Origin: a virus
IMG/VR virus record: IMGVR_UViG_3300047548_000930
Coordinates: 3,258 to 67,257 of that record
Reading direction: 5' to 3' (one strand)
DNA length: 64,000 nt
Numbering within the stretch: position 1 is the first letter of the stretch; each line of letters starts with the position of its first letter. The notes beneath the pieces were generated by a model that was not told the origin of the DNA, did not search any database, and saw nothing but the letters and a program-made list of their open reading frames with translations. This document shows, in pieces, positions 1 through 38,744 of the stretch. The translations under genes and the position numbers were made by a program.

Positions 1-155
1 AAATCATTAGTGCCAAAGTAAAACTTTATTGAGAAGCTATAACCATGAATTAGGTTACAGTGTGAATCTGCACGCCATTGCCTATATGCACAAGGGAATG
101 CATTAATATATTCTTTAGTTGAAGTATATTTGTAAGATACGGGTGTATTTGCCAT
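1..155 (-). CDS. queD: 6-carboxytetrahydropterin synthase QueD, N-terminal part (runs off the window; not in ORF track)
   Basis: Manual translation from ATG at 155: MANTPVSYKYTSTKEYINAFPCAYRQWRADSHCNLIHGYSFSIKFYFGTND. Carries the C-x3-HG(Y/H) QueD motif; AGGA SD upstream; folE nearby. Confidence 0.85.
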   Translation of the reverse strand, partial: MANTPVSYKYTSTKEYINAFPCAYRQWRADSHCNLIHGYSFSIKFYFGTND

Positions 156-174
156 AATCAGTCTTTCCTATCTA

Positions 175-217
175 TGACACGCAGAGTTCTTTTAGAGGGG
201 TGAGTGTCAAGGCCTCT
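175..217 (-). promoter_or_regulatory. Candidate preQ1-I-like riboswitch / H-type pseudoknot in the queD leader
   Basis: Minus-strand RNA AGAGG-CCU-UGACAC-UCACC-CCUCU-AAAAGAACUCUGC-GUGUCA. P1 is AGAGG/CCUCU, P2 is UGACAC/GUGUCA, with an A-rich linker; it ends 5 nt before the AGGA SD. Confidence 0.55.
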
Positions 218-252
218 TATAGCTGTATATTAAGCTAACTTAACATTAGCTA

Positions 253-627
253 TCAATATTTATTTTTTCTGCTATAATATGCTTTAGTTCCGTTGGAATG
301 AACTTCCCTACATAGATCAGTTTTTGTAAATTCAAGCGCAAAACGTGTTTCATCTGCTTCTTCCATAAAAACAAAAAAGCACGTTTTGCCATCTGGGGCA
401 ACTAAGTCTCCCCAATTGTTAATTGCAGCATTCTTATCTGGTGCCAATAGTCCGTTCCAAACAAATACTTGCCCAGAACAGTTTTCATCTACCCACTTTC
501 GTATACGCATACGATTTACCCAAGGTATTGAGCACTCGTAAAATCTAAAATCATCAACATTAATTAACCATGTTAATTCATCATAGTCACTAATGTAGCG
601 TAGGTTCTTATTAAGTCTTAAATCCAT
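253..627 (-). CDS. Hypothetical protein, F-x2-E-x-D-x3-F-x-L family
   Basis: W-x2-ENC-x-G and FMEEADETRFALEF motifs shared with the small proteins at 48-58 kb. Confidence 0.7.
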   Translation of the reverse strand: MDLRLNKNLRYISDYDELTWLINVDDFRFYECSIPWVNRMRIRKWVDENCSGQVFVWNGLLAPDKNAAINNWGDLVAPDGKTCFFVFMEEADETRFALEFTKTDLCREVHSNGTKAYYSRKNKY

Positions 628-824
628 TCCTCAGCGATGCCCAAAATTTCTGCTAGACCTAAACCAATTGCAAGCATCAATACTGCTGGTGATCCACCTT
701 CAATATGTCCAAGAACAATAAGTGTTATAATACAAGACAAACAAGATGCAATTCGTATACCGCTTTTGATAAAACTAATCTTTTGATGCCAGTGCTTATA
801 CTTGTGTTCAAAATCATTCGACAA
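618..824 (-). CDS. Small membrane protein
   Basis: Two hydrophobic segments; overlaps both neighbours in an operon. Confidence 0.65.
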   Translation of the reverse strand: MSNDFEHKYKHWHQKISFIKSGIRIASCLSCIITLIVLGHIEGGSPAVLMLAIGLGLAEILGIAEEWI

Positions 825-1134
825 TTGGGGGTTCTCCTTGTGTTAAGTTGTACATATTTAAGTAGTCCTCCCACGCCTTCTTTAATGCAGGATACTTCTC
901 ATGCAGTGCCCTTTGCTCATAACTCGTATACACTGTTGGTTGAGCTACTTCGGGAATTATTCCAAAACTGTTGTCATAAGATGTACCAGTGTCTACTGCC
1001 CATTCGTATGTGTCATCGCTTGTAATGTTAATGATATATTTGCTTAAGTCTATATCACTAACATTATATTCCTCTGTTACACTAATATCACCACTTAAGG
1101 TAATACTAACGTTCATGTTATCTTCTGGATCCAT
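814..1134 (-). CDS. Hypothetical protein (KYPAL family)
   Basis: C-terminal LHEKYPALKKAWEDY motif; paralogous to 1509-1838 and 8582-8845. Confidence 0.7.
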   Translation of the reverse strand: MDPEDNMNVSITLSGDISVTEEYNVSDIDLSKYIINITSDDTYEWAVDTGTSYDNSFGIIPEVAQPTVYTSYEQRALHEKYPALKKAWEDYLNMYNLTQGEPPIVE

Positions 1135-1135
1135 A

Positions 1136-1519
1136 TTAACCTCGCAACATTAGCTGCACTAAGATATCATTTATCCTAACACCCATATCTTCGCTGTCAG
1201 ATACCATAAACAATTCGTGTGCTGGACGATATGAGCTAGAATGTACTGGGCCATCTTCATTCTTCCAAGCTTCTACAATGTGTCCACCATTTGCACGATG
1301 CAAACGAATATTCCAACCTTCAAAGCTTTTGTTAAACCCATTAGGTCCTTGTGTAGATGGTATTGGTTCTGAAACTACTATATTTTCATCTTCTTTTAGA
1401 TAATCGCGTAGCCACTGCTTAAATGAACGACGCTTTTGTTTTACATCTTCCTGTGACCATGAAGGAGCACTTGAACCAATTCCAGCACCTTTACGATATT
1501 TGTTTACTTTATATCCCAT
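1136..1519 (-). CDS. Hypothetical protein
   Basis: Operon-packed ORF. Confidence 0.7.
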   Translation of the reverse strand: MGYKVNKYRKGAGIGSSAPSWSQEDVKQKRRSFKQWLRDYLKEDENIVVSEPIPSTQGPNGFNKSFEGWNIRLHRANGGHIVEAWKNEDGPVHSSSYRPAHELFMVSDSEDMGVRINDILVQLMLRG

Positions 1520-1838
1520 CGTTGTTCTCCCAATCGTGTTTTACCATAGCTTCTACAATTTTATAATTCTCATAAGCTTCTTTAAGTGCAGGATACTTAT
1601 CAATCATGTCAAATGCAGGTTGAATAAGACATAGTCTTTCCATTATTGTATCAAACATTTCACCTACATGAATATCTGGTTTACCTTCACGGCGAAGAAT
1701 TATATCGTTACTATAAGCGTTAGTATTAGCATAAATGCTTGATGTTGTGTAATACGATGGAGAAGTTGCCCAATAATTTGAACCTGTTGCTCCAATTGTG
1801 TAAGAACTACTGTTAAGTGTTACGTTTCCTGTTGCCAT
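1509..1838 (-). CDS. Hypothetical protein (KYPAL family)
   Basis: Ser/Thr-rich N-terminus, then MIDKYPALKEAYENYK. Confidence 0.7.
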   Translation of the reverse strand: MATGNVTLNSSSYTIGATGSNYWATSPSYYTTSSIYANTNAYSNDIILRREGKPDIHVGEMFDTIMERLCLIQPAFDMIDKYPALKEAYENYKIVEAMVKHDWENNDGI

Positions 1839-2272
1839 TATGATTCCTTATTGTTCTTAGCTATAAGCATTTCTCGAATGCTATTTTGAACATGTTCAGG
1901 AACTTGCACTTCACCGTTAAATTTAAATTTTTCTGCATGTGTATCATAGTTTTTACGGTAAATGCGATCTACTTCAGTTCGAATGTATTCGTTTTTTGCT
2001 AACTTTTCTACACACTCATTTAATTTAAATTGTTCGTGTTCAACAATAACATCGGGCATTCCTAGTTCTTTTATTTTTTTAACTCGTTGAAGTCGCCACT
2101 CAATTCTTTCTTCAAGTTCTTTTTTTGTAAGTTTTGGTTCTTTTGTAAATCTTGCCATATGAGAGTTCCATTGTTTTGTTCTCTCTTCATCGAGTCGTTG
2201 TTGTTCTGCTTCGTATGAAGCTTGATCTATATGAAACCAATAATAGTCTGCATCCATATTCGGTATTAACAT
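1838..2272 (-). CDS. Hypothetical protein
   Basis: Coupled to folE by a TAATG overlap; helical and charged. Confidence 0.7.
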   Translation of the reverse strand: MLIPNMDADYYWFHIDQASYEAEQQRLDEERTKQWNSHMARFTKEPKLTKKELEERIEWRLQRVKKIKELGMPDVIVEHEQFKLNECVEKLAKNEYIRTEVDRIYRKNYDTHAEKFKFNGEVQVPEHVQNSIREMLIAKNNKES

Positions 2273-2946
2273 TAACCATGTCCTTTCATGCTTAAGCAGA
2301 TATCGTAGAATTCCTTTTTAAGCGGAGCATGTGTGTCGAATGCACCAAGCATAATTGCGGTTGTCATATCGCTTTCGTGCTCGCGTACACCACGCATTGT
2401 CATGCAGTGATGCTCTGCTTTAACAAGCACTGCGATGTTTTCAGTCTTTGCATACTTCTTTAGTGCTTCTGCAATTTGTGTTGTCATTTCCTCTTGAATC
2501 TGAGGACGTTCGCAAATGTGATGCACAATACGATTGAACTTACTAAGGCCAATTACTTCATCTTCTGGTACAATACCAACCCAACACTTACCGACAATGT
2601 TTTGGAAGTGATGAGCGCAAGTGCTGCGTACACTAATTGGTCCGGTAGTATACAAACTCTTATATCCCATGTTTGGGAATGCTGTTACTTTTGGTACTGG
2701 ACGATAACGACCACTAAATGTTTCAAGAATAAACATCTTAGCAACGCGGCGTGCAGTGTCTTGTGTATTGTGATCGTGCTCGGTATCAATTACTAGAGAC
2801 TGTAGCACACCTTGGAACTCGGCAGCAACTTCATCTACAAGTGCATCAAGTTCACCTTCTTGAATATATTGAGCAATGTTATCATTGCTATGAAATCTAT
2901 CACCTGCTGCTAAAATGCGCTGGCGAATTTGCTCTGAAACTTTCAT
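2272..2946 (-). CDS. folE: GTP cyclohydrolase I
   Basis: TARRVAKM, STCAHH, GLSKFNR, RPQIQE and HHCMTMRGV motifs. Confidence 0.97.
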   Translation of the reverse strand: MKVSEQIRQRILAAGDRFHSNDNIAQYIQEGELDALVDEVAAEFQGVLQSLVIDTEHDHNTQDTARRVAKMFILETFSGRYRPVPKVTAFPNMGYKSLYTTGPISVRSTCAHHFQNIVGKCWVGIVPEDEVIGLSKFNRIVHHICERPQIQEEMTTQIAEALKKYAKTENIAVLVKAEHHCMTMRGVREHESDMTTAIMLGAFDTHAPLKKEFYDICLSMKGHG

Positions 2947-2993
2947 CTAAAACTCCTATTGTTTAGTGTAGCAAAAAACTACGATAAATTAAA

Positions 2994-3854
2994 TTAATTC
3001 TTTAGCTCGTAGCAGTACTGATCCCAGCACATATCTTCGAGTGTCTTTTCAAGTTTAACTAAACTGCTTAAGTTATTAACGATTGCGCTTACTGCATCAC
3101 CTTCACGTGGCGAACCAACTTTGTACATAAGTTTAATGTTAGTAACTTTCTCCATTGCACGGATAACATCAAGTACTGAGTATCCTTTTGCACTACCAAT
3201 ACATTCATATGGTGTATTTTGTGGTCCAGCTTCGATAGCTGTAACGATAGCATTAGCAACATCTAACACATGAACATAATCACGTATGCAAGTGCCATCG
3301 CGAGTTGGATAATTAGTTCCGTTAATTACAAAGTCGCGCTTACCAATAATTGCCTGTGCAACAGCTTTGATTAGATGTGGTGTTTTAGCTAACTGATGAT
3401 TGATTCCATCAGTGCCAGACACATTAAAGAATCGAAAGATAGTGTAATTGCTGCTTTTCTCTTTAATAATATCTTCTGCTGCCATCTTGCTACGTGCATA
3501 TGGACTTACCATGCTAAACACTGAGCTTGAACTTGCAAAGATAAAATGATCGTTTTCAATACGATCCAACACATTTGCAGTTCCCATTGCATTAACACGG
3601 TAGTAATCAGTTGGCTCACGTAAACTAACTGGAACACTACCTCTTGCAGCTAAATGTACAATGCAATCAAATGATCCACGCACGTAATGGGTAATATCCC
3701 ATTCCCTGAAGTCATCAATATAGGGAGTAATGTTGTTATACTCGCCGTGAATATTGATATCCCAACCAGTTACATGGTATCCATGTTGCTTTAAAACTTT
3801 GCATACATGACTACCAATGTAACCAGTTGCACCTGTTACAAGTATTTTCTTCAT
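2994..3854 (-). CDS. galE: NAD-dependent epimerase, UDP-glucose 4-epimerase-like
   Basis: GATGYIGSH, YARSK (YxxxK), FRFFNV and DGTCIRDYVHVLD motifs. Confidence 0.88.
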   Translation of the reverse strand: MKKILVTGATGYIGSHVCKVLKQHGYHVTGWDINIHGEYNNITPYIDDFREWDITHYVRGSFDCIVHLAARGSVPVSLREPTDYYRVNAMGTANVLDRIENDHFIFASSSSVFSMVSPYARSKMAAEDIIKEKSSNYTIFRFFNVSGTDGINHQLAKTPHLIKAVAQAIIGKRDFVINGTNYPTRDGTCIRDYVHVLDVANAIVTAIEAGPQNTPYECIGSAKGYSVLDVIRAMEKVTNIKLMYKVGSPREGDAVSAIVNNLSSLVKLEKTLEDMCWDQYCYELKN

Positions 3855-32380: not shown

Positions 32381-32523
32381 TGCTCACTTTCCATAGCGCG
32401 ATGCCAATATCGTTTAACAATTTCTTCTTTATCTTTATCTGTATAGCTATCTGGAATATCTTTTCCTTTTAGCTTATTCCAAATAACTTTAGCTGTTTCA
32501 TCGTTAAACTTTTTGTCTGACAT
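32377..32523 (-). CDS. Small hypothetical protein
   Basis: Start at ATG 32523 (TAATG overlap with the polyprotein stop). Confidence 0.6.
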   Translation of the reverse strand: MSDKKFNDETAKVIWNKLKGKDIPDSYTDKDKEEIVKRYWHRAMESEQ

Positions 32524-35500
32524 TAGTCTATCTCCCCGGTATACTCCTGCCCACCTAGTATACACGCTTTTTGCATTTCTGTTAACTCTTTTTTTGGCTC
32601 TTCTTTTTGCCAAACAAATGGTTTATCTGCTGCTTCGATGTATTCTTTTACTGTAGTTGGCTTTTTGATTCTTTCAAATGTATAGGCTACAATGCCTCTA
32701 TCAACTTTCCTGTTTTTAAATTTAAAAGTAGGAATAATTTTTGGTAACATTTTTGTAGATGCATCGTAGAGTTTAACTCGACTTAATTCATTTGCATAAG
32801 AAGCAAAATCAATTTTAGTAATATTTTCGTATTTGCTTAAGTATGTTTTAATTACAAGCATCACAGTAGTTAAGACTTTAAATGCATCTCCAGTGTTAGT
32901 TACTTTAATGGTTCCATCTTCATCATTTTCGGTAAAAGCAGAGAAAGAAATACTAGCCATATTTGGTTTATTTTTATCGTTTACACTAATTAATACTATA
33001 TATTCAACTCCAGCATCTGTAACAAAGTCAGCAGTATATTCTCTCATGTCTCCTTCTGCTGTAAAAGGATATGGTTTGTTAGCAAGTTCAGTTACAACTT
33101 CTTTTGATTCTGCGCTTGGTATTCTAACAGTGCCATCATCTTGATCAACGGCTGCAACAACACGATTATTTTCCCTTCCCCATCGTAGCGCAAGTTGAGT
33201 TGCTTCCTGACGACTACGGGCAGAAACATATGTTAAAACATTATTATCGTGATCATAGACTGTCCAACGACTCCATTGACCTTCGTTTCTACTAGCTACA
33301 GCTTTTATATCGTCTGGTGTTGCTACTCTTGCTCCTCGAGGACCACCATAAACTGGATTATTATTTTCCCACTCAAACCCTTTGCTTAATGCCTCTTTAG
33401 AAGAAATTGCTTTTACAATAGTAAAAGGATTGCCGTTTCTATCAAGTATTGCCCAATCAATTGGTCCTCTTTTCTTTGCTAATCTAAGTTCTTGCTTTGC
33501 TTTTAGTTTCATTACAAGTTCTGCTTTTGATATACTACCACTTGCAAACATACTAAACAATTTAACTACATTATCTTCATTTTCATTATTTTTTGCAGAA
33601 TACAATAACTTATAAAGTTTCTTAGCATACTCTTGCTTTGCTTCATTTGGATCAGCAGCAAGAGCCATTACACGGACATAACGCAATAATGTATTCTTAA
33701 TCTTTTCAATTGCTTCTAGATAGTTACCGCCTGCACTGCGGAACTCAATATAACCTTTCTTAATGTTAACGCTAACGTACTTGTCTCCTCTTGGAACAAG
33801 TGCATCATCAACCATCTTTAATGCTGCTTTATTAAGTCCACTACGTAATGTTTCAAATATAGTTGGCATGTTACGCATTACATATGGGCCAGTTTGTGTT
33901 TGCATCTTGTCAAGTGAGCTACGTGCATAGCCATTACCTAAACGACCAAACTGATCTAGTACGTACTTGTCACCAAGGAACAATATTAGCTTAATGTAAT
34001 CAACGTTTTCCATTTGTGGAATGCTTACACCCATATGGAAACCAGTCGAGCTATCAGTATATGCACCGTGATTATTCATCCAAGTTAGTACTACATCTAG
34101 CTTTTGTAGTGCTTGTTCTAATGGTAGTGGAGGACTTACTAATTCTAATCCGCCTTCCCCTGCACTTTCATCAGCATCGATACTGCTATCAGTTTCTAAA
34201 TACCAAACACCACCTTCTCTGTTGCTCTTAAATGCATGATAGTCCGCGGCAAACTTAACAGGCATACCTACAGCGTTTTTAATTTCATCTGCTACTTCAC
34301 TCATTGCTTGTTCGTCAACTTCGCCGCTGCTAGTTTCTGTCCAGTGTGGCCAATCCCACCCAAATCTCTCTGCCCATTCGCTCATCATTGACAAACTGTT
34401 ATACTCTAAGAAACCTCTTAGATCATCCCACTCAGACATGTAATCATCCCTTAGTGATTGTACAACGTCATCGTAAGTGCTATCTTGGTCTTTAATACTC
34501 TTTTCAATTTCTTCTTCGTCGTAAGTAGTATCTTCTTTATATTTTCTTCTTAATTCTTCTTGCCAATAATCAGATTCGAGTTCATTGTCAAAATCCATCA
34601 TAATGTATTCGTTTAGTTCGTCTGATACTTCTTCAACAGCTCGTTCAATAGTTCTTCTTGCTTCGCTATCCCTAAAGAATGATATTAAGTCATCTTGCAT
34701 AGCACCCATTGTTGAGCTTGTTACACGCTCGTCCATGTCATAATCTGGTTCGCTATCCCCGCCATTCTCATCTGCCATGTTAGGAACAATCATTTCAAAC
34801 TCGAACCCAACAGTAGTTGATTTTGCAATGTCACTTGCGCTAAACTTTTGTAGCGCACCTGGACTCATATCAATTTCAGTTAGACGTTGTTCGTGATTTT
34901 CTAAACTGAACTCTTTGTCCTTCATGTCGTTAAGCATATCGTAGAGTTTGGCAATAAGTCCATTGCTACGTAATGCTTTCCAAGCTAGATTTTCTGCACC
35001 AAATTCACCAGTGCTATGTAATCCAACTTGACGATACTTCTTAAGTGTATGACGTAACTTTACAGCAAGATTATAATCCTGTGCTTTTAGTGCTTTTAAG
35101 ATCAAAGCTTTTAGTACATCATACTTTTCACGAACGTTTGATTCATCAACTTCAACGGTAGTTTGTTCTGGACGCTTAACCCAATCATTGTTCATAATGC
35201 TGTAAATGCCATTGCTTACATGATCTTCGTTTGCATTTTGTACGTATAACTCTACATCAAACCCTTTGATCTTGTAGTCATGCTGTTCATTATACTGGAA
35301 CTTCTTTGCATCAAATAGTTCACGATAAATTGCGTCATCATCTACTTTTGGAAGATCAACAATTAAGTGTAAGTCAATGTCACTGTTTGGTGTGTAGTTG
35401 TATGCGGCATTAGATCCACTAATTGTAATGTCCTTCAAGTTAGGAAGTTCAATTCCTATGAAGTTTTTAAAGTCCTCTGCAATATCCAACAACTTTTGTC

Positions 35501-38500
35501 TTACAACAGGAGACATCCTACCTGCGCTATTAAACAATTGTGGATTTAGTTCATCGTTAATAGTTGGCATAAAGTCATCTGCAGGTGTACCGCCTTCAAC
35601 AAAGTATCGTGTTTGATATTTGCCGTAATTCTTTTCGTCGTGAGCAGTTGCGATGACATACTTGTAACTGTCATCCATCATTAGTATTTTCTTAATACCG
35701 TAACCAAGACCATCACGTTTACGTTTAATTACAAAGTCAACGTTTTCTAAGTTTGAAATTTTATCACCAAATTGCTTTTTTGCATTTGATAAAATATCAA
35801 GCATATCTTTTTGTGACAATGTACGTTCTGCTAATCTTTCAAGCAAGTGTCCTGAAATATATACTGGTCCATCAGCAAAATCAAAGTTGATGTAATACTT
35901 GTCTTTTTTAGGATTTGCTTTTTCAGTAATCTTAGTTGGATTTTCCTTAGCAAGTATTGCCTCATATTCTGCATTTGCTTGTCTAATAGCAGCAAGTGCT
36001 TCTTGTGCTCTTTTTTCACTATCTGCTAACCCTGGCACCGCTTTAGTCATCTTGTCCCAAGGAGACTTAGCTTCACCTAATTTAACTCCCATACCCTTTG
36101 CAGTAAGCATCATGAGTTTCTTAATCCAATCTTCGTCTAACTTACCACCAAAACCTTTCATCCAAGTATCTAGTTTTTGTTGTAATGATAGATTGGGATC
36201 TTTTAGTGTGTTACGCAATGCTGTAAAACTAGCATCAATGCCACCTAAAGCAGCACCGCGTGGAATAGCAATAACATCATAATCAACTTGATCTTGTGTT
36301 CCACCAAACTTTGCAAGTGCAGCAGGATCCTTCATACGCTTTTCTAAAGTATCCATCCACTTCTTAAAACCTTCGTAACGGTCAGTGCCAACCATCAACA
36401 CAATTTTCTTGTAAGTACTATCAGAAGGTAATACTAATTCTTTTTCAATTTTCTTAACTGGACTTGGTACAGTTACACCATCTGGACTTACAATAAGTTG
36501 GAAGATGTTTGCGTACTCGGGATACATTTTCTTCCAAGTAGCCAACTTTACTTCTGGTGGAATTGGATCATCTGGTCCAGTCTTGCTGCTAATGTAAACG
36601 TATGGGTCACCGCCAAGTTTCTTAGCAGCGGCAATAACAGTATCAATTACCTTTTGATGACCAATGTGACCAACAAAACTACCAGCAGTAACAACGGCAG
36701 CTTTGGTTCTATTGCTCCCAGTTGTTGGTGCTTTTTTAATCTTTGCAGCCATTGCACCTTTCATTTCAGTGCTAGTAACTTTTGCAAGCTGACCATTTGG
36801 CATAGCGATAACTAAACCTTCAATAGTGCTGCCAAGCTTGTCTTTACCTTTAATGTTAGGACTGTTAATGATAGCATCGCTAATTGCTTTTCGAGCTGCT
36901 GTTAATATTTCTTTTGCTTTTGCTTTTGCAGGATCATTTTTCTTTTTGCTTGACAGTGCTGTACGTAATGTATCATCCATCCTAGCAATTGGTTCTACAA
37001 TGCTTTTAACATCAATATCACTGTGCTGTAATTCAGTTCCAATTATTTTAATATTTGGTGTACTTTTAGTAATAAGTTTTTCTATGATTGTATCTGGTAA
37101 TCTTTCACCAGTAGAATATGTACTTGCAATAATAGGAACAAGTGTCATTTGCTTGCCAAGTTTTTTAGAATCATACGGTATGTTTACAAACTTAAGTCCA
37201 GTATTAGTCTTTTCAGCCATTGGGTTGTACATCATTTCTGCTTGTACAATTGTATCCTTAGGTAATTCTTTTATAAAATCACTGTTTACAATTAAGTTAA
37301 GTGCTTGATCGTATTTTTCAGCACGAGCAATTTGTTCTTCACTGCCGTTATTATCTCTAGCATATTTTTCAAACATGCCAATATTATCAGCATAAATTGG
37401 ATTTGTAACACGACTTGTCATAAAGAATGGTTTACCGCTTTGATCTTTACCAAAACGTATACCAGCACCATCTACTTTAAGTGTGATTGGAATGTTATCG
37501 AGCGTGCCTCCATTCTTAGCAATTGCATCAACAAATGCCAGGAAGTCTAAATCCTTCATTTCAACAGTTGAACCAGGATTATAAATGTGCTTAATACCTT
37601 GACGCTTATAATCTGGGGCATCTGCTTCTGTAATTGATTCTGCTTTATACTTAGAATAATAATCAGCTAAGGTTTTTGCTAATTCATTTTTGTTAATTGA
37701 AACTTTTAGTGTATCTATAAGTTTATTGATAGCGATTTCTTTTTCACGTTTGTCAGTTGCTGGGTCACCTTTGTATAGTTGCTGAGCAGCAGGGCCAAAC
37801 AACAAAGCCATAAATGCTTGTGTAATTTTGTTTTTATCTTCTGGTGTAAAATATTTGTTAATTAATGCTAATACGCCAACAAAACTGCCTAAATACTTTT
37901 CTTCACCTTTAGTTGGTTTACGACCAATTAAAAGTGTAAACATGCCTGAAATATCTGTTACATATTCGCTTTCACTTGCTGGAACTTCTTTATAAATTCC
38001 AAGTCCATCATCGGCTACTGCTGGTTTCTTTGTTTTGGGATCAATTACTGGTTCAAACTTTTGTCGAACACCGCCAGTTACAGCAAAGGCCAAATCACTT
38101 GCTGTTACTTTCTTTAGCTTAGTCTTCATTTGAATGTAACGTTCTTTAGCATCTTTGTGTGTTAAAGAACGTAGTAAGTACTTGTGGAACACGCCTTTAA
38201 TGCCTGCGCTTAAGTCTTCCCAAGCACTGCTATGACTAAACTTGCTCCACTCAGTTGGACTACCTTTATCATAGTCTACAAGTTCCATATCAATCTGTAC
38301 GTTTACAGCAGGATCTTTAAATTGCCACAAGCTAATAAATGTATCCTGTCCTGGGTTTGGTTTAAAACCAATTAACTTTGCTGGACCAAATTGTTTACCT
38401 GTTGCCCTAGTTAAAAAGTCCTTAGCTTTATCGGCTAGGTTCTTATCAACCATAGTGTCAATATCACCAACACTTGACTTTACTTTAGTAAACTGATCAT

Positions 38501-38744
38501 CTGGAATTTTTACATTGAAAAAGTGGAAGGCGCTACCACTTAAAAACTCTTTGTTTTTAATTAATTCTGGGCTCCAAAGAGGAACACCGTATGCTTTATT
38601 AAATGCACTGTTAATGATTTGCAGTGCTTTATCTATCTCAGCAACTACTGCGCTACGGGAAATCTTGTTTAAGTCTAGACGTTGAGCGGCAATGCCGTCT
38701 ATCTCAACATTGCCGCCTTCGTTAAGTATTGTTTTATTGATCAT
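32523..38744 (-). CDS. 2073-aa multidomain protein: Pol-beta NTase, ligase-like, HIGH NTase, small RNase-like, second Pol-beta NTase, amidoligase, C-terminal domain
   Basis: SGS..GDIDT..QID; KVDG..EGLVI..AKV; GHIGH..VGTDR; H-x2-ER-x2-ER; SGS..SDIDLH..VELY; GFEFE..ELVSP..GFH..IEFR. Confidence 0.85.
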   Translation of the reverse strand: MINKTILNEGGNVEIDGIAAQRLDLNKISRSAVVAEIDKALQIINSAFNKAYGVPLWSPELIKNKEFLSGSAFHFFNVKIPDDQFTKVKSSVGDIDTMVDKNLADKAKDFLTRATGKQFGPAKLIGFKPNPGQDTFISLWQFKDPAVNVQIDMELVDYDKGSPTEWSKFSHSSAWEDLSAGIKGVFHKYLLRSLTHKDAKERYIQMKTKLKKVTASDLAFAVTGGVRQKFEPVIDPKTKKPAVADDGLGIYKEVPASESEYVTDISGMFTLLIGRKPTKGEEKYLGSFVGVLALINKYFTPEDKNKITQAFMALLFGPAAQQLYKGDPATDKREKEIAINKLIDTLKVSINKNELAKTLADYYSKYKAESITEADAPDYKRQGIKHIYNPGSTVEMKDLDFLAFVDAIAKNGGTLDNIPITLKVDGAGIRFGKDQSGKPFFMTSRVTNPIYADNIGMFEKYARDNNGSEEQIARAEKYDQALNLIVNSDFIKELPKDTIVQAEMMYNPMAEKTNTGLKFVNIPYDSKKLGKQMTLVPIIASTYSTGERLPDTIIEKLITKSTPNIKIIGTELQHSDIDVKSIVEPIARMDDTLRTALSSKKKNDPAKAKAKEILTAARKAISDAIINSPNIKGKDKLGSTIEGLVIAMPNGQLAKVTSTEMKGAMAAKIKKAPTTGSNRTKAAVVTAGSFVGHIGHQKVIDTVIAAAKKLGGDPYVYISSKTGPDDPIPPEVKLATWKKMYPEYANIFQLIVSPDGVTVPSPVKKIEKELVLPSDSTYKKIVLMVGTDRYEGFKKWMDTLEKRMKDPAALAKFGGTQDQVDYDVIAIPRGAALGGIDASFTALRNTLKDPNLSLQQKLDTWMKGFGGKLDEDWIKKLMMLTAKGMGVKLGEAKSPWDKMTKAVPGLADSEKRAQEALAAIRQANAEYEAILAKENPTKITEKANPKKDKYYINFDFADGPVYISGHLLERLAERTLSQKDMLDILSNAKKQFGDKISNLENVDFVIKRKRDGLGYGIKKILMMDDSYKYVIATAHDEKNYGKYQTRYFVEGGTPADDFMPTINDELNPQLFNSAGRMSPVVRQKLLDIAEDFKNFIGIELPNLKDITISGSNAAYNYTPNSDIDLHLIVDLPKVDDDAIYRELFDAKKFQYNEQHDYKIKGFDVELYVQNANEDHVSNGIYSIMNNDWVKRPEQTTVEVDESNVREKYDVLKALILKALKAQDYNLAVKLRHTLKKYRQVGLHSTGEFGAENLAWKALRSNGLIAKLYDMLNDMKDKEFSLENHEQRLTEIDMSPGALQKFSASDIAKSTTVGFEFEMIVPNMADENGGDSEPDYDMDERVTSSTMGAMQDDLISFFRDSEARRTIERAVEEVSDELNEYIMMDFDNELESDYWQEELRRKYKEDTTYDEEEIEKSIKDQDSTYDDVVQSLRDDYMSEWDDLRGFLEYNSLSMMSEWAERFGWDWPHWTETSSGEVDEQAMSEVADEIKNAVGMPVKFAADYHAFKSNREGGVWYLETDSSIDADESAGEGGLELVSPPLPLEQALQKLDVVLTWMNNHGAYTDSSTGFHMGVSIPQMENVDYIKLILFLGDKYVLDQFGRLGNGYARSSLDKMQTQTGPYVMRNMPTIFETLRSGLNKAALKMVDDALVPRGDKYVSVNIKKGYIEFRSAGGNYLEAIEKIKNTLLRYVRVMALAADPNEAKQEYAKKLYKLLYSAKNNENEDNVVKLFSMFASGSISKAELVMKLKAKQELRLAKKRGPIDWAILDRNGNPFTIVKAISSKEALSKGFEWENNNPVYGGPRGARVATPDDIKAVASRNEGQWSRWTVYDHDNNVLTYVSARSRQEATQLALRWGRENNRVVAAVDQDDGTVRIPSAESKEVVTELANKPYPFTAEGDMREYTADFVTDAGVEYIVLISVNDKNKPNMASISFSAFTENDEDGTIKVTNTGDAFKVLTTVMLVIKTYLSKYENITKIDFASYANELSRVKLYDASTKMLPKIIPTFKFKNRKVDRGIVAYTFERIKKPTTVKEYIEAADKPFVWQKEEPKKELTEMQKACILGGQEYTGEID

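Follow-up and report, generated by a model that had tools for sequence, protein, structure and literature searches.

A conserved pseudoknot, and candidate riboswitch, in the leader of QueD-like genes of large lake phages

To our knowledge, few phage-carried riboswitches have experimental support, and none of them serves the 7-deazaguanine pathway, which many phages carry. The locus examined in this study, a QueD-like gene preceded by a leader that can fold into a compact knot, raises the question of whether that leader is such a switch and, if so, in which direction it acts. The DNA is a 64,000-nucleotide stretch of an uncultured viral contig (hereafter the window), and a preliminary description of it had read the leader as a preQ1-I-like pseudoknot, that is, a phage-borne riboswitch exerting feedback control. 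Full-text searches of the literature found no report of a riboswitch on a phage queD. The accessible portions of PMC7029224 and PMC4360716 mention no such element, and the latter portion notes queuosine genes in freshwater Far-T4 phages without a riboswitch.

Every gene at the left end of the window is on the minus strand, and the QueD-like ORF runs out of the window there; it is complete in the 67,257-bp contig, where it encodes 166 aa (G000 2912-3412, minus strand). The protein matches the Pfam PTPS family (PF01242, E = 1.6e-15) and the PHROG family annotated "QueD-like" (phrog_2389, E = 7e-36), and scores 36 bits against the NCBIfam QueD model, below its cut-off of 89. On the 3' side of queD the contig carries two small ORFs and then a QueE-like radical-SAM gene (phrog_2076, E = 7e-50), and a FolE gene lies 2.1 kb upstream of queD at window positions 2272-2946. 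The contig covers part of a large phage genome (CheckV completeness 19%) and also carries a B-family DNA polymerase, RNA ligase, PhoH, ClpB and DnaJ, while a complete relative of 223 kb (G002) has T4-like replication, baseplate, portal and head genes, with a gp43-type polymerase, UvsX/UvsY and a gp32-type SSB in its gene set. The source is a large uncultured T4-like phage, and the carriers of the element are T4-like lake phages. Against named phage genomes, megablast of window positions 1-3000 gave no match, and blastn gave two short folE matches to Vibrio phages and nothing else.

Read along the minus strand from 217 to 153, the window contains, letter for letter, the leader string that the preliminary description placed upstream of queD. 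By sequence, its two crossing helices make an H-type pseudoknot just before the Shine-Dalgarno (SD) sequence and ATG of the gene (Table 1). The 6-bp P2 of the earlier reading stands, with an addition that it had missed: beyond a U203.C181 mismatch, two further pairs (C202-G182 and A201-U183) prolong the helix. Because P2 is extended by these pairs, L2 is only C200-C199, and of the 13-nt A-rich tail (193-181) 10 nt (193-184) are left as L3. The accompanying caveats, that the first loop base is not U (C212), that P2 and L3 are longer than in preQ1-I and that the ligand may be another one, were apt. Downstream of P2 the leader continues as UAGAU-AGGAAAG-ACUGAUU to the ATG, with 5 nt between the end of P2 and the SD. 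A promoter-like site (TTGATA-18-TAATAT) was observed at 256->227, upstream of P1. An intrinsic terminator was rejected, with 0 terminator-like sites in window 1-1200.

Table 1. Elements of the queD leader and neighbouring features, in window coordinates.
Feature	Position	Strand	Remarks
QueD-like (PTPS-fold) gene, 5' part	1..155	-	ATG at 155-153
Predicted alternative hairpin	150..179	-	179-172/157-150 and 170-168/161-159; excludes P2
SD region AGGAAAG	163..169	-	GGA 10 nt before AUG
P2 3' strand GUGUCA	175..180	-	Doubles as 5' strand of the predicted alternative start-codon hairpin
U183, G182 and C181	181..183	-	U183, G182: P2 extension, 3' side; C181: mismatch partner of U203
L3 AAAAGAACUC	184..193	-	A-rich, 10 nt; from distinct-core comparison
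P1 3' strand CCUCU	194..198	-	Sequence and covariation
L2 CC	199..200	-	C199 directly 5' of P1 3' strand
U203, C202, A201	201..203	-	U203 opposite C181 (mismatch); C202-G182 and A201-U183 prolong P2
P2 5' strand UGACAC	204..209	-	Pairs with 180-175
L1 CCU	210..212	-	First base C212
P1 5' strand AGAGG	213..217	-	Sequence and covariation
Hairpin directly 5' of P1	219..253	-	Begins at last base of upstream ORF's stop codon; without U tract (fold)

The motif, which spans about 43 nt, was found in most of 160 loci sampled from more than 900 QueD-like matches. With the QueD-like protein as query, viral contigs yielded at least 585 relatives, of which the best 80 were fetched, and a strict pattern (a perfect 5-bp P1 with GG at its end, a loop whose last base is C, and a 13-nt tail that closes with YTCYGY) occurred exactly once in 76 of the resulting 81 loci, the window's own included. 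From 55 distinct cores an alignment (A1) and a covariance model (R1), which encodes P1 only, were built. On the 64-kb window R1 has a single match at 170-221 on the minus strand (49.2 bits, E = 5e-17), with the runner-up at 10.6 bits when filters are off, and each of five relatives of 209-360 kb, two of them rated complete, likewise has one strong match (47.9-68.7 bits) with the next at 13.7 bits or less. A generic repeated phage regulatory motif is thus ruled out, since the element is single-copy in the window and in these five large relatives.

At E<=0.001, R1 matched 79 of 82 sources (the 80 relatives, the window locus L001 and L135), a count that is partly by construction, as 55 of these sequences built the model. 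The motif precedes queD in 78 of the 80 close relatives. One locus (L003) holds only 37 nt upstream of queD, another (L061) has a partial copy without the P1 5' strand, and the R1 search found no motif in L023 and L043. In 74 of 75 relatives that bear the motif, queD itself is the ORF that begins 23-40 nt beyond the tail; the exception is L055, where an 84-aa ORF precedes queD. A second QueD clade (59% identity), to which the gene behind the single real bacterial-genome match belongs, provided an independent test set, as none of its loci was used in building R1: the motif lies directly before queD in 71 of 80 loci sampled from 363 viral relatives, and the remaining 9 gave nothing above 6.3 bits with filters off. 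Across all 12 loci that were searched again in this way, the best score was 8.2 bits (L043). The motif is absent from 11 of the 160 queD loci, namely L023, L043 and the 9 of the second clade.

Bacterial genomes, searched with an AGCGG variant of the pattern only, yielded at least 120 stretches, and among the 80 scored with R1 one was real (L135, 61.9 bits); the others reached 22 bits at most, and many were one coincidental Collinsella coding site. The occurrences found are on phage contigs and on one contig of a Haliscomenobacter MAG. In the complete relative G002, queD stands alone behind the DNA polymerase gene, with queE and folE approximately 33 kb away (counted across the ends), and it keeps the motif; the RNA therefore belongs to queD and not to an operon. 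The conservation among homologous queD leaders whose absence had been named as evidence against the preliminary reading is present in both clades, and as judged from these sequence comparisons the element is more than chance.

Helix P1 is paired in 99.7% of cells in alignment A2 (64 distinct rows), compared to 88.4+-0.8% in shuffled alignments (0/500) and 45-61% in slid-partner controls; A2 was fitted to P1 and so favours P1 pairing, and the strict-pattern result and the second clade agree with it. Three of the five pairs vary on both sides: the first is A-U in 62 rows, U-A in 1 and unpaired in 1, the second G-C in 57, C-G in 6 and U-A in 1, and the third C-G in 47, A-U in 10 and U-A in 6. The top two pairs are invariant, G-C in 63/63 distinct rows with letters. 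The second clade behaves in the same way, with 99.5% of cells paired (91.9% shuffled), a second pair that is G-C in 28 rows, C-G in 10, U-A in 1 and unpaired in 1, and a closing G-C in 41/41 distinct rows with letters.

For P2, ungapped anchor alignments were used because the MAFFT and covariance-model alignments (A1, A2) misplace its length variants. These alignments were anchored on the invariant words UCR and UCYGC and fitted to no structure; A3 holds 52 distinct first-clade rows (L061 dropped) and A5 holds 26 distinct second-clade rows absent from A3 (L253, truncated, and L305, with a deviant tail, dropped). Paired cells amount to 81.4% in A3, compared to 63.3+-1.6% when shuffled (0/500) and 19-41% in slid controls, and to 79.3% in A5, compared to 67.5+-1.7% (0/500) and 26-50%. 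Pairs varying on both sides number 7 of 8 in A3 and 6 of 8 in A5, and cells with changes on both sides number 87 in A3 (38.8+-4.7 shuffled) and 24 in A5 (7.2+-2.3 shuffled). There were 28 helix variants, and a permutation using one sequence per helix type gave 0/10,000. The outermost two pairs are weak, with about half of their cells unpaired, and a subgroup with a loop ending in GCAU and a 3' strand AAGCC needs a bulge or mismatch in P2. Both of the crossing helices originally proposed covary across relatives under shuffle and slide controls.

The extension pairs the CA of UCA with the UG of UCUGC: its first pair is C-G in 78/78 rows, and its second is A-U in 70/78 and G-C in 8/78. Among 87 distinct cores (3 rows could not be parsed), 78 carry UCA with UG, 9 carry UCG with CG and 0 are mixed. 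Since these pairs hold, P2 reaches the junction. In the family consensus that results, P1 has 5 bp (A-G-N-G-G / C-C-N-C-U) and its G-C top is invariant, L1 is N-C-U followed by a variable stretch, and P2 has 3-7 variable pairs and then the U.C mismatch, C-G and A-U. The first base of L1 varies (C 40, U 36, A 11) and its second and third are CU in 81/87 cores. L2 is 2-3 nt long (UC 58, CC 11, UUC 9, AC 8, CUC 1), and its last base, the C next to the P1 3' strand, does not vary in A1, A3 or A5. L3 has A at positions 3 and 7 and UC at 9-10 in 87/87 cores, and the U.C mismatch is kept in 86/87. These unpaired positions are invariant in the manner of aptamers.

The nearest known RNA is the preQ1-I riboswitch, which the accessible part of PMC11625349 describes as an H-type pseudoknot in which the conserved closing G-C pair of P1 forms the floor of the pocket and the ligand pairs with a strictly conserved cytosine that adjoins the P1 3' strand on its 5' side; the base ahead of this cytosine is U in type I and A in types II and III. 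According to the same part of that source, the ligand's other edge is recognised by U6 of L1 and an adenine of L3, L3 is rich in A, and the first SD bases lie inside P2. A member of the family would have its A-rich L3 in the minor groove of P1, and its ligand-bound fold would sequester the SD or a terminator and so act as an OFF switch. By analogy, C199 would be the candidate ligand-specificity cytosine of the phage motif. The Rfam preQ1 search proposed earlier did not recover the leader: cmscan with E<=10 over window 1-1500 and 140-260 returned no PreQ1 match, and the RF00522 model (gathering threshold 39 bits) matched 0/6 leaders (the window and five relatives), its best scores being 12.7 bits elsewhere on the same contig and 11.8 bits in the relatives' records, never at the leader. 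No Rfam 15 family matched window 140-260 at E<=10, and the cmscan of window 1-1500 gave three chance-level sRNA matches, all away from the leader. The motif is not a recognisable preQ1-I member, because RF00522 fails at all six leaders tested and the L1 U is not conserved. Of the preliminary preQ1-I-like reading, then, the fold, the G-C floor, the junction cytosine, the A-rich L3 and the que context survive, and RF00522 membership and a conserved L1 U do not; the motif would work like a preQ1-I aptamer in design and is not filed as a member of the family.

Three types of expression platform, called A-like, B and C, follow the same knot, and each was folded twice, once unconstrained and once with the P2 3' strand blocked. 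The A-like type comprises 6 loci (the window's type with L002 and L010, plus the odd leaders L029, L036 and L048). In the window, the predicted alternative hairpin buries the AUG and part of the SD; blocking takes the fold from -9.8 to -0.3 kcal/mol, and the unpaired probabilities from 0.00 to 0.72 for the AUG and from 0.60 to 0.68 for the SD. The isolated P2 duplex (-8.0 kcal/mol) and start-codon hairpin (-9.0 kcal/mol) are predicted to lie in a balance that a ligand could tip. In L002 the hairpin is partial (-5.1 to -1.9 kcal/mol, AUG 0.16 to 0.47, SD 0.72 to 0.66), and in L010 it is not formed (-3.6 to -0.7 kcal/mol, AUG 0.74 to 0.72, SD 0.64 to 0.76).

In type C (18 loci, 16 distinct), where over 20 nt separate the knot from the SD, a GUCAUC that overlaps the P2 3' strand pairs with a GAUGGC at the start codon. 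The AUG is 0.00-0.02 unpaired in 16/16 distinct leaders, with the mean rising from 0.00 to 0.33 on blocking, the SD from 0.52 to 0.73 and the fold from -10.3 to -5.2 kcal/mol. This start-codon helix is kept despite one-sided changes in L015, L054 and L081; changes in it are one-sided only, with no compensatory double change among the leaders examined. Type B is the commonest (52 loci, 43 distinct), and in it the first SD bases are covered by a hairpin, P3 (CCUAUG/CAUAGG; L053 and L056 have the compensatory form CCUAUA/UAUAGG), which has only 2 nt (CC) in common with the P2 3' strand. Blocking in the 43 distinct type-B leaders takes the fold from -8.1 to -3.5 kcal/mol and the SD from 0.36 to 0.73 unpaired, while the AUG falls from 0.60 to 0.33 because a weak alternative helix forms.

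On balance, the folding predicts that P2 and sequestration of the ribosome-binding site (RBS) are mutually exclusive. As the P2 3' strand pairs with the start codon in the window and in 16/16 type-C leaders, an ON switch is predicted, and the leader in this phage is probably one by these thermodynamic predictions for short helices, on which the ON logic rests. The sign of regulation in type B is ambiguous from the same modelling, and L010 counts against the ON reading. It also counts against ON that a biosynthetic gene switched on by a ligand resembling its product would be unusual. The feedback (OFF) control proposed in the preliminary description does not fit this arrangement, in which the SD is outside P2 and the P2 3' strand is the start-codon partner in the window and in type C.

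The surrounding pathway bears on what the ligand might be. FolE (PF01227) and the QueE-like family (phrog_2076) are present in 5/5 genomes searched, and QueC (PF06508) and the TGT family (PF01702) are found in 0/5, two of them complete. A PHROG scan of 149 of the 173 G002 ORFs of at least 140 aa, leaving out 24 ORFs (one a partial duplicate) and all shorter ones, found no QueC and no transglycosylase (DpdA), and a very divergent DpdA could have escaped detection in G002. With no QueC or TGT-family gene, these phages do not themselves make preQ0 or preQ1. Compared to solved QueD/PTPS chains, the QueD-like protein has Tyr for His at two positions (AYRQ for AAHR and HGY for HGH), and both Tyr residues are kept in the relatives listed. 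The replaced histidines presumably bind zinc. Given these two replacements, the enzyme may be something other than a standard CPH4 synthase, and either a 7-deazapurine or a pterin intermediate might serve as the ligand.

The leader is a conserved, gene-specific structured RNA and, on its anatomy and context, a strong riboswitch candidate. It is probable that minus-strand positions 217-150 form a cis-regulatory queD leader in which a ligand with a guanine-like face switches translation ON. The invariant unpaired bases around the P1/P2 junction would form a pocket for such a small molecule, perhaps a pterin intermediate, for instance the substrate of QueD, or a 7-deazapurine (for example preQ1, preQ0 or CDG), and the junction cytosine would recognise it as in preQ1-I. 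Without ligand, the P2 3' strand (UGUCA and the next 3 nt) would pair with the start-codon region UUAUGGCA, closing a hairpin over the RBS; a ligand-stabilised P2 would withdraw that strand, open the RBS and turn on queD translation. The 11 of 160 queD loci that lack the motif count against this reading. Of the phage-borne riboswitch first proposed, the conserved structured leader at a que gene is retained and the feedback repression is not supported.

There are several other potential explanations for the conservation of this leader. A more specific proposal, which is possible and at present tentative, is that the phages possess a new riboswitch class that has adopted the preQ1-I scaffold for another guanine-faced metabolite and switches ON a non-canonical QueD-like enzyme in a feed-forward manner. 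Dihydroneopterin triphosphate, CPH4 and CDG would then be candidate ligands, and the pathway would hint at a deazapurine or pterin product that has yet to be described.

A divergent member of the preQ1-I class, in which bound preQ1 or preQ0 would repress queD translation in a feedback loop, is rather unlikely; the case for it comes chiefly from type B. In this scheme the compact knot would hinder the 30S subunit, either from its position 5 nt from the SD or by stacking on a downstream hairpin. The fold, G-C floor, junction cytosine, A-rich L3 and que context are common to preQ1-I; P2 of the window ends 5 nt before the SD; and in type B, P2 abuts the SD-sequestering P3, on which it could stack, and blocking P2 lowers AUG accessibility there (0.60 to 0.33). 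Moreover, the accessible part of PMC10018353 reports that a preQ1-I riboswitch set apart from its RBS still represses. However, RF00522 finds none of the six leaders at E<=10, the ligand-contacting L1 U is not conserved, and the SD is never within P2. The start codon of type C has the P2 3' strand as its partner, so P2 formation should open the RBS, and QueC and the TGT family are absent from 5/5 genomes, so that the phages have no preQ0 or preQ1 synthesis of their own.

T4-like phages use protein-bound leader structures. The relatives being T4-like, the leader might instead be a translational operator bound by a protein, either the QueD-like protein itself or a general T4-style repressor of the kind that acts on gene 32, gene 43 and RegA targets, and covariation with invariant loop bases would suit a protein site equally well. 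Such an operator is nevertheless unlikely, since the element is single-copy at one metabolic gene, and many targets would be expected of a general repressor. The element also copies the anatomy of a metabolite aptamer of the same pathway, down to the junction cytosine and the G-C floor, and a competing RBS helix is typical of riboswitch expression platforms.

It is very unlikely that the leader is a purely structural, ligand-independent element acting in mRNA stability, as a ribosome standby site or enhancer, or as an RNA thermometer. The evidence is of structure, with sensing inferred from it, and the difference of platforms A, B and C between clades would be tolerable for a simple stabilising 5' structure. 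The invariant L2 C, the A3, A7, U9 and C10 of L3 and the U.C mismatch would nevertheless be needless in a pure structural knot, and in all three platforms the RBS-sequestering helix overlaps the P2 3' strand. A signal at the DNA level, consisting of a sigma-70-type promoter and operator, is barely credible: L3 forms a -35-like hexamer (TTTACA, TATACA, TTGACA and others) in 40/43 distinct type-B leaders, 16-18 nt from a TAnnnT in the P3 loop, but such a promoter is missing from window 217-156 and from 16/16 type-C leaders, in all of which the knot is kept. A DNA signal would not explain the compensatory changes in P3 and the two crossing helices, and a transcript from such a promoter would lose the conserved part. 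The promoter-like arrangement in type B may be a real internal promoter there.

A ligand of the preQ1 family would make the riboswitch candidate a fourth structural type of the smallest aptamer known, and one whose logic is inverted (ON). Any other ligand would make it a new class, and it would then also point to the product of a set of FolE, QueD-like and QueE-like enzymes working without QueC and DpdA. In both cases the element would offer a way into the timing of a base-modification or cofactor pathway by large lake phages.

The pseudoknot is real, conserved and uncatalogued, and it is related in design to preQ1-I. As far as the accessible part of PMC11625349 describes the latter, both are small H-type pseudoknots with a 5-bp P1 and an invariant closing G-C, in both an invariant cytosine immediately precedes the P1 3' strand (in the phage motif mostly after a U, as in type I), and both have an A-rich L3, with a conserved C near its 3' end. 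Both also lie directly upstream of a gene of the queuosine/7-deazaguanine pathway, beside the RBS. However, the phage motif differs in that its first L1 base is not a conserved U, its P2 is much longer (3-7 variable pairs, the U.C mismatch and 2 fixed pairs), and its L3 is 10 nt with an invariant UC end. Its SD, moreover, is outside P2 (5 to more than 20 nt after it across leaders), and its P2 3' strand rivals an RBS-sequestering helix, for which ON logic is predicted. The adenine riboswitch of Vibrio vulnificus add is a translational ON riboswitch built on a three-way junction. As proposed for the phage leader, a strand of its aptamer doubles as the partner of the RBS, and the ligand withdraws that strand and frees the start site; the two differ in that the phage RNA is a pseudoknot and its logic is a prediction. 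The mRNA of T4 gene 32 is autoregulated through a pseudoknot in its 5' leader that is bound by the encoded protein. The phage queD leader resembles it in that a gene of a T4-like phage has an H-type pseudoknot in its 5' leader, but whereas gene 32 is a DNA-replication gene with a protein-bound leader, the leader described here belongs to a metabolic gene and has the anatomy of a metabolite aptamer.

Promoter-like signals overlap the pseudoknot in most leaders with a type-B expression platform, the form in which hairpin P3 covers the first bases of the SD. In 40 of the 43 distinct type-B leaders, a -35-like hexamer (TTTACA, TATACA, TTGACA or TTGATA) can be read in loop L3, and the loop of hairpin P3 contains TAnnnT at a spacing of 16-18 nt. 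The type-B RNA motif may be overlapped by an internal sigma-70-type promoter. This combination was found in none of the 16 type-C leaders, nor in the leader of the window. Adjoining P1 in the window is a 35-nt hairpin, and from a promoter-like site there transcription would begin just 5' of P1; such sites are no commoner in the region than chance predicts (8 vs 5.0 ± 2.3).

Two copies of the motif are unusual. Among 80 bacterial-genome loci scored (of at least 120 matches listed), the only real match was in L135, a 183-kb contig of a Haliscomenobacter MAG that carries large radical-SAM genes on either side of queD; possibly the contig is phage DNA that was mis-binned, or it may point to the host. 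Compared with the copies in two other viral loci (L031 and L044), the copy at L061:86-128 is missing approximately 11 nt, including the 5' strand of P1, through either decay or an assembly error.

Genes for FolE and a QueE-like protein are both present in five of five records among the contig and its large phage relatives (G000-G005, two complete genomes included), while QueC (PF06508) and the TGT family (PF01702) were found in none of the five. The predicted product of the pathway in these phages is a CDG-type compound. In the complete T4-like relative G002, four radical-SAM genes (phrog_1802), two of which show weak QueE-like similarity, are clustered with several 2OG-Fe(II) oxygenase genes at ~151-156 kb (L216-L227). 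An HNH-endonuclease-like ORF lies immediately 3' of the QueE-like gene on the contig.

Features of the window, its contig (G000, window locus L001) and related loci (L002-L081, best 80 of at least 585 viral relatives)
Feature	Position	Strand	Remarks
QueD-like gene	window 1-155; full ORF G000 2912-3412	(-)	relatives L002-L081, L135
N-terminally extended QueD-like	L015, L016, L019, L031, L036, L038, L044, L046, L049, L051, L058, L065, L072, L075, L077 + others
Type-B leaders with -35-like L3 + TAnnnT, examples	L006:1432-1500, L075:1366-1440
35-nt hairpin adjoining P1	window 253-219	(-)
Promoter-like site TTGATA-18-TAATAT	window 256->227	(-)
2073-aa ORF	window 32523-38744	(-)	sole Pfam match: amidoligase domain, residues 1481-1577
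HNH-endonuclease-like ORF	G000 909-1682 (L001)	(-)	phrog_559, E 1.4e-07

The N-terminus of the QueD-like protein is 15-25 aa longer in many relatives, and these extensions fall into several kinds with unrelated sequences. With or without an extension, the true queD start is always the one that the motif adjoins. When aligned to solved QueD/PTPS chains, the phage protein has Tyr in place of His at two positions (AYRQ vs AAHR and HGY vs HGH), and both Tyr residues are conserved among the relatives listed and in the more distant second clade. The two replaced His are presumably zinc ligands in QueD/PTPS, and the phage enzyme is possibly something other than a canonical CPH4 synthase.
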